A DNA stretch of 62,450 nucleotides, counting the filler, from Sphacelaria rigidula (Eukaryota): NCBI GenBank assembly GCA_964200075.2. It is 8 parts of 8 records of this genome, joined end to end, with 100 filler letters (N's around TTAATTAATTAA, not from the genome) between each part and the next. Parts side by side here need not be neighbours in the genome. Positions count along the whole stretch, not along the records: positions 39,097 to 46,814 come from CAXNAA020013684.1; 7 more parts are not named here. One strand, given 5' to 3'. This document shows, piece by piece, positions 7,721 through 49,089 of the stretch. Position 1 is the stretch's first letter. Each line of letters opens with the position of its first letter. Made by a program: the position numbers and the translations under genes. The notes below the pieces were generated by a model, which made no database searches, had not been told where the DNA came from, and worked only from the letters and a program-made list of their open reading frames with translations.

Positions 7721-7820
7721 NNNNNNNNNNNNNNNNNNNNNNNNNNNNNNNNNNNNNNNNNNNNTTAATTAATTAANNNNNNNNNNNNNNNNNNNNNNNN
7801 NNNNNNNNNNNNNNNNNNNN
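7721..7820. other. Artificial contig linker N44-TTAATTAATTAA-N44
   Basis: 100-bp spacer with stop codons in all six frames. Confidence 0.98.
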
Positions 7821-39096: not shown

Positions 39097-42000
39097 ATCC
39101 GGACGGATGCAAGTCCGGATGAATCTTTTGAGACCGGATGCGACCTCCTTGGCGTCCTCAGCGACGCAGGCTGGCAGCTCTCAGGAAGACGGAAGTATGA
39201 CCCCGTCCACCTCTTCTTGGAGGTATCCATAACCCTGTGCCCTGAGGTCCCTTTGATAGCAAAACCGTCCTTACCAACTACACGGGTCGCTCGATCGCGG
39301 ACGATAACGGATTTCACTGGGGTCGACAAAAAATGTATACGTACGCTCCTCCTCTGCGAAAGATCGTTGGTCTGCTCATTCCTCTTCTTGCGAAATATTC
39401 GCGCCGGCCGCTGGTATGAGTGCGAAAATTGCCGAGTGACCATCCTTTTTTTCGACACATTTTGTATTTGACATTGGCGAAAACGAACCCAAGCGTGGGA
39501 AAATTGTATTCCATTTTTCCAGAGAAAAATAATCCAATCCAAAATATAATCATCCAGCCCCAACCACTTCCAACCAAAAAATAAAAACCCATATGCCAAC
39601 AAATATCTTTGCCCACGTGCCATAAGCTGCACTCACACGCAGCGCTTTTACAAAGTCTGCATAGTGCCGCGTTCGGATGCCGGGTTGCACTCATGATGGT
39701 TTATTTGTTTATGCCCATCATCCTCGATCTCGGTTGCATATCGGGGGAAGGTTCGGGGCACCGATTCTGTCGTCCCGAAATTTCAGGAAACGTTCGGAAA
39801 GCAAAACGGTAGGGGAAGAATTGAGAGCGAAGATGTTCGCCGCGTACGGCACTACACCAAGGGCCGCCTGTGCACCGTATACGGTGATAGCCCTCCGGCG
39901 AACAATGTTCACAGCCAAATGTTTTTGGGCGACTCTGATGGAATGATAAAACCCTTGTTGGGCTGTAAATTTCCCGTCGCAGAGATAGCCCTTCGAGGGT
40001 ATCAGGATGATGATGACGCTTCTTTTGCGCTGATGACAGTCTCAATGTTCTTCAGTTACAGTTGATGATGGAGTTCCTCATGTGTGCTGTTACTCACTTG
40101 AGGATAGAGTGATGCTACGAGAAAGGGGAGGCGTGGGGGGGGAGGTGATGGAGCAGAAGCTGGACGGCGTGTCACGTGTTTTTTTGTGGTCGATCGGAAC
40201 TTGCTGCTTTCAAGGCCGAATGCAATCGGCGCTTTCGACCTTGGAAAATCACGAAGGACCGCGGACCCCAAAGTCGGACGAATCAAAATTCCTTCCCGCT
40301 GCTTTGTACCCGGAATTAGCACGTTTGTGGCGTGCCGGCGATGATAACCCGGATTTCGTGAGCCTGTTTGTTCATGCTTGCAGCGCTAACGTCGCCGACA
40401 ACAAGGTGCGCCTTCCACGATTTGAAGAGAGTCACGGCGCATATCCATCCAACACTCCATGTAACGGTTGGCTCCCATTCGCCATACTGTTCCGGAGTAT
40501 TGCCCCATGGGACATGGGTGGAACCTGACCCACACTCGTCCCATCCTTCGCCTGTACCTCTCATATTCATGGCGCGCTTTACGCTTCCCGTCAGATGCGC
40601 ACCGATGTCGGCGAGGTGGGTGGGGAAGTACGAGGCCGGCTGGGCTACGGATGACGCAGGATCAACAACCCGGTAGGTTTAGTAGTGGTACATGAAGTTG
40701 TCGGCGGCGATTCACGTCATGGGAAATTCTCTGCGAGTGCATTTGCGCTGCAATTGTGGGGGCGTCGGCGGTTGAGGCTTTCGTGGGCGTGCTTTGCAGT
40801 CGCAAAATTCGATTCCCGACGAAAACGATAGCTGGCTGTGGAGCGATGCCGCAGCGTTGTCGATGGTGCTTTCGGCCCTTGATGTTGGTCCGCTATTGGA
40901 TTCGAACACGGCGAGTTGTTGGAGGAACTTCGAGGGATGGCGTGGGAATAGGCCCCGAGTTCGTCCTGTGACTCGAGTATAAACACTTGCGATGGTCGGG
41001 CTTCTGTCTTGTTCGGATAAATGGAGGAGGGATGTTCACAATGTCAGACCTTTGCCGCCTGAAACGTGGTTCATAGTGGATTTTTGCCGCGGGGCAAAAG
41101 CGATGGCGTTCCCCCGGCGACCCCAGATTGGGATTCCGCGCGATGATCCGCGAATGCATGGAATCCCGCTGTTTGAGTACGGTGAAGGCTTCAGGGCGTG
41201 TTCGCTCCGCCTCATGCTCGTGGGTGACAGGACACGAAGTACTCTGCGGAAGAATGCACGCTCGGAACGCTTTCCCCCGGCAACACGGCAGGAGGAATAT
41301 GACCACTGGCATGCCCTCGCTCGTGGATTACATTCCTCTTGAGGTGTCTCGGTCACGGCATAGTTACACGCAGCAAATGCGTCAGCACATGTCATCTCTA
41401 GGTAATATTCCTGCTGCAGCGAACATTCGCCGGCGCGGCGCACGCGGAAATATCCCAACTAAATTCAGCGTGACCATGGAGGATAATTTTGTTTGAGGAT
41501 ATTCGATGCTATTTCGGATACATGTCCACTCCGTGGCGATGGCGATGGGCTACACGCTTACGGAAGAGCAACCGTTACCTCTTACGCGCCACTACAAAAA
41601 TTCACCTTCGGCCATCCTTCGCCACGCTTCCTTTGGGAAAAAGTTGATTAAAATGCAGGGTGAATAAAAAAACGTCTTCAAAATCGGCAAAAGCACAGCA
41701 TACCGTGTTCAGCCCGACATCCTGACGCGAACGACGGCACCAACACGTGTACACACACCCACGCTGGCGCGCTATATGATGTATATGTTTGCAATAGGCG
41801 TCGCCGTCGAAACCATGAAAACCCCTAGGCACCGGAAGACCATGTGCCGAGCTCTAACTCGCATCGCGCTCATAGCCACTTCGATACTTGTCGTTCCCAC
41901 CGATAGTGTGCTGTCGAAGAGGTACAGATATGCCACAGGTATGTTGCCCCACGTGCGATACGCGGCGTAATCGCATCTTATGTTCATTTGGATAGTTTGC

Positions 42001-42540
42001 TACGGTAATTTCCCACTCTTCAGAGAAAATTTGCTGATGGATTTCTCGCCCGAGACTGGGCGTTCCAACGTGACACTTTGCGCACTAGTCGGACACAACA
42101 AAGGCAGCATGTGCACCAAGGGGTGGCACATTTGGGCCCGGCTCAAATGAGAACATAGCAACTAGCGATTTCCGGGAATGCCGTCGATACGCCCTCAAAT
42201 CGGCTTTCCCGCAGCTCAGACTTCGTGCACTATTCAGGCGAATGCATACGTGTACGCGCTGGTGCACCAACTTCGAGATTTTGAGCAGCTGGGCGGCCCA
42301 TGTGGTAGCAAACAGACACCGAGCTGTACTGCGACCCTTTCTGGATAATGACAATATGCTGAAAAGTCATCGGCGTAGTCTCTAAAGGTGCGCAGTTCGG
42401 GAGGCACTGCCGTACGCGCGCTGTAGCCGCTGCAAGGCGCTGGAACGTCGGTCATATGTTATGCGAACCACAGTCGGCAATCCCACGTCACTATATCTGG
42501 TGCTGTGCGGTGCAGCAACGCGCACTAGGGTGAAAAGCGG
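39097..42540 (+). pseudogene. Long degenerate coding-like tract of unknown product
   Basis: Chain of protein-like plus-strand segments (40082-40528, 40794-41342, 41776-41970) broken by stops and frameshifts; no recognised domain. Confidence 0.35.
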
Positions 42541-42850
42541 TGAGGTTCTATTCCTTCGTTTCTTGTCTTGGCGAAGCACTAGGTAGGATTGCGAGTTATC
42601 TGGCGTCTACCTGGGGTCAAAATTCTGGCACTGGGCCCACAGATAGGAGCAAGACGTTTGAGTGAAAAAAAATCGACTAACCAAAGTCTTGAGATACACC
42701 AAAATGCGGCGACCTTTCTTCAATCAGGTAAGAAAAACGAGTGGAAAATGAGGCGAAAAATAGATTTGAGTGGCCCAAACATTGCACTGCTGCAAGACAG
42801 ACAGCTGCTACAATGAATCACCGAGGATACAGCCGCTCCGTGCTGGCTTA

Positions 42851-45800
42851 CCGTAAGTTGAATAAGATACCACACTCACATAAGACACGACACCCCTGTG
42901 AAGAATATAGACAATGCCACACCCGTGTGCTATTTTTTTGGGTGCCGAAATAAACGATATTTTATAACACGGTGACATAAGATACCACACCCCTAGGGTT
43001 TAGCCGCACATCATCCAGGGAGCCCCTGGTTTATCACACGGGTGTGATCGCGCCTGAGCAAGCACACAAACGAGCGAACACAACCTGCGGGCCACGACGG
43101 TGGAGACCGGCAGTATCATGGAGAGAGATGCAGCATCTAACCCTGCTGGAAGTACCGCGCCTCACACTGCGGTGGACCAGACTCCAGCAGCTACTTCACG
43201 CTCCATAGCGTCGTCTTTTCAACCCGCTGCGCAGGAAAGTGCGGCCCCTGCCGAGAGTGCTTCAACAACCGTGCATGACACCACATGCACTGGTGAGGCT
43301 TGCACAGCAGAATCCCCAGCAGACAATCCGGTAGTACCCGCTGCACCTGCCTCCGCACGGGCTGCAGAGGGTCGCACAGCAAAATCTACTGCTGCTGAGA
43401 CTCCGACAGCACCCGCTGCGCCTGCCACCGCACGTGCTGCTGAAGTCCCAACCCCACCGCCCACAACAGAGAAGCCGGCCACACCTCCCGCCACCGAATC
43501 TACAAACGCGTCCACAGTTGAGAACCACGCAGCAGCACTCCACTGCGCTGACCCATCATGCAGCAGGAAGGCCTTGTGGGCTGAGCCAGGAAAGGTGAAC
43601 CGGGGTTTTGCGGCATGCACGCAAACTCTGGTGACATCTACATTCAATCAAGGTGTGCGGAGTGTCTCTTCTCAGCAGCGTTTCGGTGTACTGTATGTCC
43701 ACCTGTGTGAATATGTGTTTTTGAATTCACACGGCCTTGGCTGATCGAAATCAATTTCATGTGCGATTTTCACATGCTGCTATCCGGCTCGCATTTTCGC
43801 TCTTGTGAACGGTATCAAAGCAACACATTCGGTTACAAGCCAAGACTACCGGTATATTAGCTTGTTCTGTGAGTAAGTGCGTTTTGTGATCTCTCTTTTT
43901 GACTCCACCAAAAATAGTAAGGAAACGTTGCAACCACTTGCGCCAGTACCACCTTCAGGCTTCGCCCCGCTTTGTGCCAGATAACCAGGAGGTGTCGTTA
44001 CCTCCCCTCATCAGTCTGCATACCTTATTTTCTGTTCATCGTTCTGTGAGCTTTTTGAGTCCTGTTCGATAATCAACAACTTTCAGCATCTCTTGTCTCA
44101 TCGTCGTTCAAGCTCGCACATCATTACACACACTGCGCTCCATCGCGTGTGCGTTATTTTTGTCATTACATCGAAATTCATCCCTTTTTCAGGAGACCAC
44201 GGCTGCCTCAAGCTTCGACCACAGCAACCCGAGCGGCGCCCGTCGGCGACACTATGTTCCCTGGAGAGTCTGAAGAGTGGACAGATGGTTTCGGTGGGTC
44301 TCTCGACGGCGTGCCGGCGGAGGACAAAGGCAAGAGGAAAAAAGAGCAGCTGGAGTTGGAGCCGCCGGACTTTTCGATTGAGTTTGGTGGTGGCCAGAAG
44401 CGCAAGCGGTACGCGTTGGCTTTCAAGTTAAACGCGATTAAGTACGCGGCCAATAAAAGCCCAGGGGCGCTCGGGCCGGATGGAACTATCGGCATATCGT
44501 ATGCTACGAGGGTGCTGGGGATTCCTGAGAAGATCACACTTTCCGCCTGGATAAAGGACCGCGAAAAGTACGAGAAGGAGCTGGAACGGGCGGACAAGCT
44601 CGGGGCCAAAGGCAAGAAAAAAGCCCGGAGTATTAAGTCGTTGAACACCGGCAGGGTCAGGTCAAACGCGGAAGCCGAGCTCGAACTGCTCGACTGGATC
44701 AACGATCTTCGCACCGATGAGATCTCTGCCCGTGTCTCGACGAGGATGATCAAAAACAAGGCTGTTTCAACCAACCCGCTTTTTCTCGGCCCGAGGCCTG
44801 CAGCGAATGACCTGGAAGCCAGCAAGAAATACCGCAACAGGCAGACTCACTGGTGTAGGAGGTTTTTGAAGAAGTACCACCTGTCGTTGCGGGTGGTCAC
44901 TCGACAAGGCCAGAAACTGCCTTCCGGGTGGCCTGCGATTGCCATGAAGTCGGTGAAAGATTGGAGGGCGCTTCGTCACGGAGGCATCGACGGGGGAGAG
45001 CGGCGTACGGAGGGGGCAGGGAACAGTGGGCCGTCGGAACCACCTCTGCTGTTCTCGGACGAACAGTGCTACAACATGGACGAAACCCCTGTGTGGATGG
45101 AGCCAGCTGTCAAGCCAACGGTGGCGGCAAGTACGGTGGCGCTGTGTCATAAACTTGTGCTCTTCTTTTCACTCTAGCCTCCTGTAACTTGTTCTTGCCT
45201 TCTATCGTTTCCCTTGTCACTGTATGCAGTGGGCACTGTGTCAACATCTTCCTGCCGTAGGACTCAGTGTCCAGGCAGTAGCTCTCGATGGCATAGGTTT
45301 TGTGCTGTGGCTGCGCGAGAAATCCCTTGACGGCCGCCTGCATCACGACTGTACTGCGACATCAACACGTTACCTTGCACATGAGGAGGTATCACCTCCG
45401 ATCAACGAATCCACTTTTGTCTTCACGTTTGCTTTCTATTTTCTTCCCGTTTCTTCTACTCGTTGCAGTACACCGGTGACAAGGAGGTCGGTATCAAAAC
45501 CGGTGGCAAGGAAGGGTTGCCCGTCACTGCCGTTATTGGAGCGAACATGAAGGGTGACAAGCTACCGGGGATGCTCGTCTTCAGGGGCAAGGCCACGGCG
45601 CCGGGGAAAGCTCCGGCTGCCAACAGCATCGAGCGAGAGTTCAAGGCGTGCAAGGACAAGAAGGGGAAGGCATACCCTCGGGGTCTTGTATACGCCGTGG
45701 ACGACAAGGCGTGGCACACACAGCGGGTGTTCAACGACGTTTGGTTGCCCCAAGTGTGGAACCGCCGCCCCGGGCGGGAGGGGGCCGTGGGCAACTAACG

Positions 45801-46315
45801 TCAGCCGGACACGCGGTTAGTGTGGGACGACTACACCGTGCACAAGACGGACCTGTGCAAGGCTGCGATGGAAAAGTCAAACACGACGCTGTTTCTCATC
45901 CGCGGAGGTCTGACGCCCAAGATCCAGCCTTGCGATGGACTCATCGAGAAGCTTTTCAAGTCCAACATGTCCAAGCAGTACGATGACTACATGGCCTCCA
46001 GCGACGCTGTGCGCAACGACCGCGGATACCTGGACCCCCACGCATGATCATGAGTACACCTCCTCCCCCCCCCCCCGTCAAGGGGGTTGCTCACGCAGTG
46101 GGTTAAAAAAAGCGTGGGATGAGGTGGACACTGAGAGCATCCGTTCGAGCTGTAAGAAGGCTGGTCTGCTTCTTCCCTTCGACGGATCCGAAGACGAGGC
46201 GTTGGCCAACAAGGAGCTCAACGCCGATGCTCAGGGAAGGCCGTTGACAAAAGACGGCGACGCAGCGGCTGCGGGGAGGAGGCTGGTTCAGCGGACGGGG
46301 ATGAGCCACCATTGA
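42851..46315 (+). mobile_element. pogo-superfamily DNA transposon (left end present, right TIR not found)
   Basis: Starts TA|ccgtaagttgaataagataccacac, with the ataagataccacac motif repeated at about 42863 and 42978; the transposase follows. Confidence 0.75.
43118..46315 (+). pseudogene. Three-exon pogo DD35D transposase with an N-terminal Ala/Pro/Thr-rich region and EsV-1-7-like motif
   Basis: Exon 1 43118-43652 (frameshift near 43599). Exon 2 44193 to about 45130 has an HTH ([10 protein letters not shown]..), a CENP-B-type HTH ([26 protein letters not shown]) and YNMDETP. Exon 3 from 45469 has GDKLPGMLVFRG, VWDDYTVH, QPCD and KKAWDEV..IRSSCKKAG. There are 35 residues between the second and third Asp, an in-frame stop at 45796 and a short insertion at about 46040-46075. 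Confidence 0.9.
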
Positions 46316-46814
46316 AGATGGCCGACTAGTTGAAGGTGTTGGAAATCGACGACGATGACAGCACGGGTAGGGGCGCGGACGACAGCAGTGACCTGGAGGT
46401 TGAAGTCGTGGCAGACTCGTCGAGGCAAGATGTTGTTTGCGTAGACTGAGTGTCTTTGTTCGGGTGCGTCCTTTCCACTGCATGTGATGTCAATCTGTGC
46501 ATCCTTTCGTCGAGTGAACCACGGCTACGACAGCTGCGATTTGAGCAACATAGAGCTCAACGGCGTTTTTTATCCTGTCTTCAGTTGTTTGGACGGTCCG
46601 GTATCTCATCTTTTTTTGTAGGAAGTTGCTAGCTTGGATTGAGCTGTAAGCTCGTCTGACAGGCTTCGGTCATCTTGTTGATTCGTTCATCATGCAATTC
46701 GACAAAGTGTTCTATTTTTTCATCGTGCGGATACGGTCGTGACACTTTCTACGATAGCCCCCCCCCCAAAAGTGCATGGTTTTGGGAGGCAAAATCTTCA
46801 CGTAAATCGAAATG

Positions 46815-46914
46815 NNNNNNNNNNNNNNNNNNNNNNNNNNNNNNNNNNNNNNNNNNNNTTAATTAATTAANNNNNNNNNNNNNNNNNNNNNNNNNNNNNN
46901 NNNNNNNNNNNNNN
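46815..46914. other. Artificial contig linker
   Basis: N44-TTAATTAATTAA-N44. Confidence 0.98.
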
Positions 46915-47051
46915 CTGCATCCTCCTAAGATTGCTCGGCCCGAAGCCTACTGATTGTCTTGCATTTGGATGACAGCCTACAATGAGTTGCTTTACTATCT
47001 GGTACCGTCACTTCAAGAGACAGCTACGACTGATACACTGTCTCATGGGTG

Positions 47052-47161
47052 CACGGGTGGCCACTGGGGTGCCTGTAACCTCAAATTTGGGCGTTACAAA
47101 CCTTGTGCGACGTCTGTAACGTCCAAATTTGAGGTTACAGGCACCCCAGTGGCCACCCGTG
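47052..47161. mobile_element. 110-bp hairpin MITE
   Basis: Near-perfect arms of about 47 bp (cacgggtggccactggggtgcctgtaacctcaaatttgg...), short loop, flanked by TG on both sides. Confidence 0.8.
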
Positions 47162-47559
47162 TGATATCAGGGGAAACGACGGTTTCTGTCGGCTCTGTAC
47201 GCGCACAGAGTCGGGAAAATGCGTTGAAGAAGGATCAACGCGATCGAGGGGTATTGGAGTGACAAAAACGTCATCGGGTACCATCGCTGAAGGTGTGGGG
47301 AAAGGACTGTTTCGGGCTTGAACCTCATTTCATCGTACAACCTAATTTTTTGCAGTTTCTCTCGAATTTTGTTACATTATGTACTCCCGCCCCTCCCCCC
47401 CACGACGTGGGGGGGGGTATGGGGGGGTAGGGAAAACCTCATGAAACACCCGTTCGAAAACAGTGTGACTCCTCACGTATCCGACCGTTGGCTCCCACCT
47501 GGAGATTGCACTGAGCGTAATCGCACCAGCCTCCACACGAACCAAGCCGACGTGCGGAT

Positions 47560-47560
<1 letters not shown>

Positions 47561-47615
<55 letters not shown>
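47561..47615 (+). repeat. Poly-C tract (55 nt)
   Basis: Read directly from the sequence; lies downstream of the DIRS/Ngaro recombinase. Confidence 0.95.
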
Positions 47616-47616
<1 letters not shown>

Positions 47617-47944
47617 CCCTGGCCCCCCGTCCCCTCGTTAGGCCAACACCACCCCCCCCCCCTACGTTTCCACGCCCGGCAATGCAGTCCGCCCGTAGGG
47701 TCGTGTCCCCTCTGTGCATATGTAACCAACTACTCCACCTCGGCTCTTATCTCTTTCATGTAACGTGATCACACCACTCCTTCCTGATCCAGCTTGTCCA
47801 TCACCGTGTACTAGTTTCATTATTCATCACCACGTCTGACGTCCCCATCCAAATTGCTTATCCATCTGCAAACACACACTCATGTCGGCCACCTGAGTCG
47901 CCCTCCGCCGAGTTCTGTCACTACTCACCCCTCCACTCGGTGCC

Positions 47945-48510
47945 CTACCCGGGCTGCAGATCCCCGCGTCTACGCTTGTCGGCCAGGGCTTCTGACACTA
48001 AGCCGCAACTGGCGTCATTAGCCCGGACGTATGACTTGTATGCGTCCGATTTCCATCTACCCTCCTGTTGCAACACCTCTGGAGACACTCCCGCTGCCGA
48101 CAAGTGGGTGGCGCCACCAATCCGCAAAGTGTGCAACGCAAACTCTGCGGGCGGGAGCCCAGCCAACGCCACCACTTGCCGTAGCGCTGCCGCAGCATCA
48201 TACCGATTCCACACCAGTAATTCCCCGGAATCCCGCGTATCATACGTCATCAGCGGGGCCTCAGCGGGGTACGAAACCGAAAGGGACATTAGTTCAATCA
48301 CTAGCGCGACTGCTCCACCCCCGGCTCGAAATTTCAAGGCAGGACCCTCGCGAACGCGAGTTACTACCATTCCGACTCGTAACTGACCCCCTTTGGAAGC
48401 TCGAAATCGCACGTCCACCCTGTCTGCTATACCCCACTCAGGTCGACGCAACTGCGTCCGTCTTTTATAAAAGGTCACATCCCTCCTACGCAAACAGTAG
48501 AGTGGGTACT
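47945..48510 (-). mobile_element. DIRS/Ngaro-type retrotransposon tyrosine recombinase, C-terminal catalytic part
   Basis: YCLRRRDVTFY, VRFRASKGGQ (Lys), FALHTLRIGGATHL (HxxR) and EGRWKSDAYKSYVR (Trp, Tyr) are typical DIRS/Ngaro recombinase motifs. Confidence 0.9.
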
Positions 48511-49089
48511 GCTCATTGCTATTAAAAAAGAGGATAAAATACAAAACGCTGCTCGCTCCTGTAGTGCAGGACCAAACGGTCTCCTACTCTCTTCTTCGTA
48601 CAATATTAATGCTTTTCTCTTGCTTCGTTCGCTCACTGCCGTAGGCTCGATCGTCTGGGCCCCTTGCTGGAGTTCTTCACTTGAAGACTTCACTCCGTCT
48701 CTGTCGTCTTATCACTCTCCCGAAGCGTTTGCCGCCGTCGAACACTTGTCCTTTCTGCTCAGCTCCGTCAAAATCCTCTCAGAATGCGAAACCCGTGGGG
48801 AACAAGTTCAGAGCATCACTGCGCGACAGAGGGACATGGCGTGCTCGGGCGGGATGGCATACCTGATGCCTTGGCTGGGTGGTGCAGATGCCAAAGAGTG
48901 TGCAACCCGTCCACTCGTGAAAGGGTAAGGCTTTCCAGGACTCCACTTCCCGGTAGCCCCTCCGATATTGCTCCATCCTGAACCTTTCCTCGCTTTCCCC
49001 ACCCTCATTTTTCCCCCTGGGTGTAGACTCACGACGGTCTATCAGGGTGAGGAGGTGAGGTTTTGGTTAAAGGTTGGCGTCGCCTCGAA

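Follow-up and report, generated by a model that had tools for sequence, protein, structure and literature searches.

Ordinary pogo transposases begin with helix-turn-helix (HTH) domains. The closest described system to the element reported here, which was found in a 62,450-base stretch of DNA from Sphacelaria rigidula (assembly GCA_964200075.2; the whole stretch is called the window below), is TcMar-2_Ec32 of Ectocarpus. In its published description (Genome Biol 2025;26:320, PMC12477816), this is a 4.4-kb autonomous element (4378 nt) that mobilises the 217-bp miniature inverted-repeat transposable element (MITE) TcMar-N1_Ec32 and has CCGTA...TACGG termini, 25-bp terminal inverted repeats (TIRs), a TA duplication, and a spliced gene with an N-terminal EsV-1-7 domain; another file of the same article gives 159 copies in the context of TcMar-2_Ec32, and its methods describe RNA-seq-based curation of intron-containing gene models. 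The EsV-1-7 family is among the largest expanded in brown algae and includes the developmental regulator IMMEDIATE UPRIGHT (IMM). The Phaeoexplorer preprint (10.1101/2024.02.19.579948) names PF19114 as the EsV-1-7 Pfam model, counts from ~100 to 335 EsV-1-7 genes in brown algae, often in arrays, assigns five motif repeats to IMM, and reports that one orthogroup, made up 'principally of transposon sequences', was set aside from the EsV-1-7 collection. The domain is described as common to phaeoviruses and brown algae and as thought to be viral in origin. The locus in the window is very probably a dead, 3′-cut copy of a TA-targeting cut-and-paste element of the pogo branch of Tc1/mariner that carries an EsV-1-7 exon and belongs to TcMar-2_Ec32 or a close counterpart. 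Its features are collected in Table 1.

Table 1. Coordinates of the transposon copy and its surroundings, counted along the whole window.
Feature	Position	Strand	Remarks
TA dinucleotide beside the left end, one of the two TAs expected from target-site duplication	42849..42850		Read in the sequence; right-hand TA outside the piece
Left terminus, starting CCGTA	42851..42875	+	25 nt if the TIR length of TcMar-2_Ec32 holds
Three subterminal direct repeats, 14-nt word	42862-42875, 42880-42893, 42977-42990	+	Within the first 145 nt; word family D1
Exon 1	43118..43652	+	ATG, Ala/Thr/Pro-rich stretch of ~140 residues, then Cys/His motif; frame broken at 43599/43600
C-x4-C-x16-C-x2-H skeleton, EsV-1-7 type	43544..43620	+	First Cys codon 43544-43546, His codon 43618-43620
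Intron 1	43653..44192	+	540 nt, GT..AG, GC 0.454
Exon 2	44193..45126	+	Internal Met 44254, HTH region, HTH_Tnp_Tc5 (44668-44892), first catalytic Asp (45079-45081)
Intron 2 (predicted)	45127..45468	+	GC donor GCAAGT (45127-45132)
Exon 3	45469..46449	+	Rest of DDE_1 (45523-45768, 45817-45999), second Asp 45826-45828, third Asp 45934-45936
Lesion 4, insertion specific to this copy	46035..46070	+	36 nt, two in-frame stops, C-run end
3′ non-coding part of the element	46450..46740	+	GC 0.464
Start of a different, very high-copy repeat	46741..46814		Reaches the piece end; outside the transposase gene

The Cys/His module of exon 1 is split between two frames. A stop-to-stop frame from 43058, with its first ATG at 43118 (frame A), covers the first two Cys of the motif, while a second frame from 43585 (frame B) carries the third Cys and the His and continues to the GT at 43653, and the spacing of 16 in the skeleton requires one restored base. 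The original prediction, made from the DNA alone, had placed such a base near 43599, and this was borne out: when a single ±1 shift was allowed, exactly one C-x4-C-x16-C-x2-H site was found in the window, at 43544 and with a shift of -1. The skeleton matches the EsV-1-7 formula, reported to stem from Macaisne et al. 2017. Exon 1 and the window at large each hold just this one motif, without tandem repetition. Ala makes up 26% of the coding part ahead of the break (43118-43597), which also abounds in Thr, Pro, and Ser. The GC content of exon 1 was found to be 0.598 versus 0.454 in intron 1, in line with the range for all exons (0.58-0.60) versus introns (0.45-0.50).

The splice sites flanking intron 1 are in phase, as had been predicted. 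A codon is interrupted after its second base by the donor AG|GTGTGC (43652|43653) and completed by the first base behind the acceptor TTTTTCAG|G (44192|44193), after which the frame of a long open reading frame (ORF; 44059-45177) is continued. In an alignment of eight sequences, five reach past the exon-2 Met on its upstream side (the window and the database proteins P0136, P0137, P0138, and P0009), with the other three starting at this residue; all five longer ones have an open, alignable frame from the acceptor-spanning Phe-Arg codons (TTCAG|G) to the Met. Since residue 36 of P0137 is Ile in place of the exon-2 Met, translation of that copy cannot start there. The 43652->44193 joint was absent from the 15 of 31 contig joints listed, and the two public runs guessed to be RNA, X6 and X8, gave window-identical contigs of depth 2-3 that are unspliced across both splice sites and are uninformative on splicing. 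No read spliced from exon 1 to exon 2 was seen; phase, GC contrast, and the conserved acceptor suggest that the two may be joined by splicing.

Contigs assembled from public runs of the same organism were used to follow exon 1 into other copies. In run X2, a variant contig over 43506-43692 (one contig, depth 110.7/110.7) was found to differ at three positions and to have a C inserted behind 43599; the four ligand codons are kept and, with the C added, the spacing returns to 16. The extra C in a diverged copy thus indicates that the Cys/His frame is intact elsewhere and that the exon is in the repeat family. Variation of run X2 over 43091-43299 amounted to 14 differences. The diverged contigs over exon 1 have depths like those over the transposase, and exon 1 is therefore repeated together with the element. 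A contig of run X8 (43570-43720) equals the window without a gap and run X1 shows no insertion there, which argues that the frameshift at 43599 is not a mere assembly slip of one record, with the limit that X1 and X8 may include the source sample and do not count as independent support.

A number of observations weigh against the assignment of exon 1, and of the locus as a whole, to an EsV-1-7 transposon family, and most of them would fit a Cys/His pattern that arose by chance in an upstream open frame, with the transposase starting at Met 44254 and exon 1 serving as a 5′ leader or non-coding DNA. The shift-tolerant pattern occurred in 46% of 200 random 62-kb sequences (mean 0.615 sites). Pfam, when run on each half of the motif separately, gave no match even at E ≤ 10, and the Cys/His pattern was present in 0 of 156 related proteins. 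The gene models P0001, P0003, P0005, P0010, and P0146 begin at the exon-2 Met, and P0002 and P0143 have an Ala/Pro-rich N terminus that lacks the motif. The GC content at third codon positions of exon 1 is 0.46 versus 0.69-0.79 in exons 2 and 3; this low value may reflect Ala/Thr/Pro bias or low complexity, or may be a trace of separate origin. At the level of the whole element, the right end and the second TA both lie outside the piece, and the likeness to TcMar-2_Ec32 is drawn from its published description, so that the element may belong to a sister family. Despite these points, a chance origin of the motif is considered very unlikely. Counting only the 1342 nt of sense strand that separate the element end from exon 2, the expectation falls to ~0.007 sites (scaled from the random-sequence mean); another copy has the base missing from the window, at the very place the frame calls for; donor and acceptor are in phase; and the frame from acceptor to Met is open in every sequence that reaches upstream, one of which has Ile for Met. 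Many of the related database proteins are unspliced ORF calls that run into introns and hence could not display a spliced exon 1, and a curated published family with the same CCGTA terminus has an N-terminal EsV-1-7 domain. The proposal of a transposon family with a fused EsV-1-7 module is therefore supported by (i) the published TcMar-2_Ec32; (ii) the frame-restoring C in the diverged contig of run X2; and (iii) lesions that were mapped against homologues.

The transposase encoded downstream was examined by Pfam and by comparison with its relatives. The original prediction listed an HTH, a CENP-B HTH, and a DD35D transposase in this order, of which the catalytic part stood, the second HTH fell narrowly short, and the first found no match. 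Exon 3 matched DDE_1 (PF03184) twice, with one piece at E 8.1e-6 (26 bits) and the other at E 1.6e-4 (21.7 bits), and the full-length homologue P0001 reached 72.9 bits with this model; 35 residues separate the second catalytic Asp from the third, in agreement with DD35D spacing. HTH_Tnp_Tc5 (PF03221) scored 21.9 bits (E 1.8e-4), 0.3 bits under the cut-off of 22.2, and the first 'CENP-B/psq' HTH had no Pfam match at E ≤ 1. By tblastn with P0001 and P0016, exon 2 mapped to 44254-45135 and exon 3 to 45460-46446; on this basis the coding region ends at 46449, with an acidic tail and the stop TGA at 46447-46449, rather than at 46315 as first proposed. The boundaries of intron 2 are predicted from the requirement of equal length with P0002 and P0003. 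All five relatives that read through its donor site carry GTN (Val) there, and hence a GT donor.

Searches with exon 2 as the query returned 4 longer proteins, 28 of similar length, and 122 representatives. The best matches were 94% identical over 63% of the query and 77% identical over 99%, and among the named proteins the nearest belong to Ectocarpus sp. CCAP 1310/34 and Undaria. A subfamily with 51-53% identity includes two Ectocarpus models whose Ala/Pro-rich N termini lack the motif; such motif-less relatives imply either that the module was gained in a TcMar-2-like lineage or that it was missed by those gene models. Exon 1 itself attracted little from the databases: the homologue search with its peptide gave no candidate, a Protein Atlas search with half of the motif gave no usable match, and Pfam reported nothing for P0066 and P0041. 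The sequence 'CADRFC' upstream in P0066 and P0132 was considered as a motif remnant and rejected, its BLASTP comparison with exon 1 not being significant (E 0.53).

Comparison with homologues and other copies showed seven changes in this copy, of which six are disabling, and the copy is dead, as was originally proposed. The changes are: (1) one base missing at 43599/43600; (2) GC instead of GT at the second donor, which may be tolerated; (3) TAA at 45796-45798, where four of four full-length homologues have Tyr; (4) the 36-nt insertion of Table 1, which corresponds to a 12-codon gap relative to P0001 and P0016; (5) a single A added at 46105; (6) a loss of four bases near 46270; and (7) TAG at 46327-46329, where P0001 has Leu. 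Contigs of the public runs have the undamaged state at lesions 1, 4, 5, and 6. At the insertion, contigs of other copies either pass from 46034 to 46071 and skip the 36 bases, or pass from 46039 to 46106 with 29 letters as a replacement. The C run at 46060-46075 was also noted to draw spurious joints when contigs are placed on the window. The copy cannot make transposase and could move only if its right end, outside the piece, is intact.

At its left side the element is delimited by TA|CCGTA (42849-42855), and the exon-1 ATG lies 268 nt downstream, which agrees with the earlier placement of the exon inside the element. The exact 27-nt left end occurs once in the 62-kb window, its inverted partner was not detected in 42000-49000, and further copies of the element were not found in the 62-kb window. 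The 14-nt subterminal word, with up to two mismatches, has five matches in the window versus 0.34 expected, and three of the five are just inside the left end; these repeats are probably transposase binding sites. The right end is absent from the piece because the expected end (42851 + 4378 - 1 = 47228) lies past the piece end at 46814. A TACGG at 46732-46736 was rejected as the right end, as its flanks do not match the left end in reverse complement, and an element ending there would measure 3886 rather than 4378 nt. The high-copy repeat at 46741 starts ~290 nt past the transposase stop; the summed contig depth from this position is >3e5 versus ~50 alongside, and hundreds of different flanks meet at 46740/46741.

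The position of exon 1 relative to this left end bears on another explanation, in which exon 1 stems from a host EsV-1-7 gene, or was captured by this copy alone, and lies beside the insertion by coincidence without being a feature of the family. In its favour, brown algae have the ~100 to 335 often arrayed genes counted in the preprint, and the left end is defined only by a 7-nt motif together with the published description. However, exon 1 has several diverged contigs over it, with depths similar to the rest of the element, the ATG is inside the CCGTA end, a single motif is present and not the usual tandem repeats, and the published family has an EsV-1-7 domain of its own. That exon 1 is foreign to the family is thus judged very unlikely, and we retain the view that the exon is an integral part of a pogo-branch element.

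The layout of the window sets the limits of this analysis on the 3′ side. Runs of N start at 7721, 15540, 23359, 31178, 38997, 46815, and 54633, with a period of 7819 bases, and the N44-TTAATTAATTAA-N44 spacers between stretches of ~7.7 kb indicate that the window consists of eight separate pieces and that features cannot be traced across the joins. The transposon copy sits in the piece 39097-46814, and the DNA past 46814 is unrelated. The GC content of the 62,450 bases is 0.50. In the next piece, a near-perfect hairpin was observed at 47052-47161 (50-nt arms, 96% complementary, 10-nt gap), which may be a MITE-like or foldback element; the same piece has long G-rich and C-only tracts at 47400-47432 and 47553-47616, one with >60 C.

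An intact element of this kind would, by our model, be transcribed from near its left end. Exon 1 would encode an arm rich in Ala, Thr, and Pro, probably disordered, with a single and presumably zinc-binding Cys3His module of the EsV-1-7 type at its end, and splicing would join it in frame to exon 2, which would provide two HTH DNA-binding domains and the first catalytic Asp, with exon 3 supplying the remaining DD35D catalytic domain and the acidic tail. Terminal and subterminal repeats would be recognised by the HTH domains, with cutting and pasting at TA left to the DDE domain; the transposase would also mobilise abundant MITEs with shared ends. The EsV-1-7 module would act as an accessory unit acquired by the lineage that adds a contact to DNA, chromatin, or protein, and its placement beside HTH DNA-binding domains hints at nucleic-acid or chromatin binding.

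The original prediction also suggested that such a transposon could be a route by which the domain passes between virus and host, and this part was left without support. Transfer between phaeoviruses and their host, whether of the element or of its EsV-1-7 exon, with spread of the domain, is compatible with the pogo-family assignment and could be imagined from the presence of the domain on both sides and its supposed viral origin, with a transposon as a plausible carrier by inference only. Against it, viral contigs yielded neither a relative of exon 2 nor a hit for the degenerate exon-1 pattern (both weak negatives), and PMC12477816, in its available text, makes no such claim. A scan of metagenome contigs with exon 2 also found no relative, and the three loci at which the degenerate exon-1 pattern was met in metagenomes were rejected as chance matches, each with a stop inside. 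Within the full-text literature as far as it was accessible, 'EsV-1-7' and 'transposase' were found together only in PMC12477816, and the portions of the EsV-1-7 literature retrieved by search do not propose a transposon as a virus-host shuttle. We regard such transfer as very unlikely. Similarly, it appears very improbable that TcMar-2-like transposons seeded or multiplied EsV-1-7 exons across brown-algal genomes, or shuttled them between phaeovirus and host, with the domain serving to target DNA or chromatin; if true, the transposase would reveal a role of EsV-1-7 in DNA or chromatin targeting that bears on how IMM works. A 2026 preprint describes the annotated Ectocarpus EsV-1-7 genes as being without any other Pfam domain, which would make the transposase the only known fusion of the module to a protein of known function. 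The connection of EsV-1-7 with a transposase was already made in the 2025 Ectocarpus transposon paper (PMC12477816), and the window contributes only a decayed copy and its exact exon structure; the locus, as a probable decayed member of a published family, is ordinary for its lineage.

When compared with known systems, the window copy most resembles TcMar-2_Ec32 (with its MITEs TcMar-N1a/b_Ec32) in its CCGTA terminus, its TA, its phase-compatible introns, and its N-terminal module, and its size is compatible, with 3964 nt present before the piece end versus the 4378 nt published. It departs from TcMar-2_Ec32 in being a pseudogene: its motif is frameshifted, it has two stop codons, the 36-nt insert, two more frameshifts, and a GC donor, and on the 3′ side it runs into another repeat at 46741. 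Over exon 2, the Ectocarpus and Undaria models P0001-P0004, P0143, and P0146 are 49-59% identical, with a matching HTH-DDE_1 layout and acidic tail, yet they differ from the window element by an internal-Met start or an Ala/Pro-rich N terminus without the motif. With transposases of the pogo/Tigger/Tc5 type, the element has in common DDE_1, a near-threshold Tc5-type HTH, the 35-residue spacing, and the TA target, whereas the additional N-terminal exon, predicted to be spliced and carrying a Cys3His module, sets it apart from ordinary pogo transposases. The same Cys/His skeleton, by the formula cited above, is found in EsV-1-7 proteins (PF19114 / IPR043822), such as IMM and the product of EsV-1 gene 7; in contrast to these, the window element has a single motif, and this motif is joined to an enzyme.

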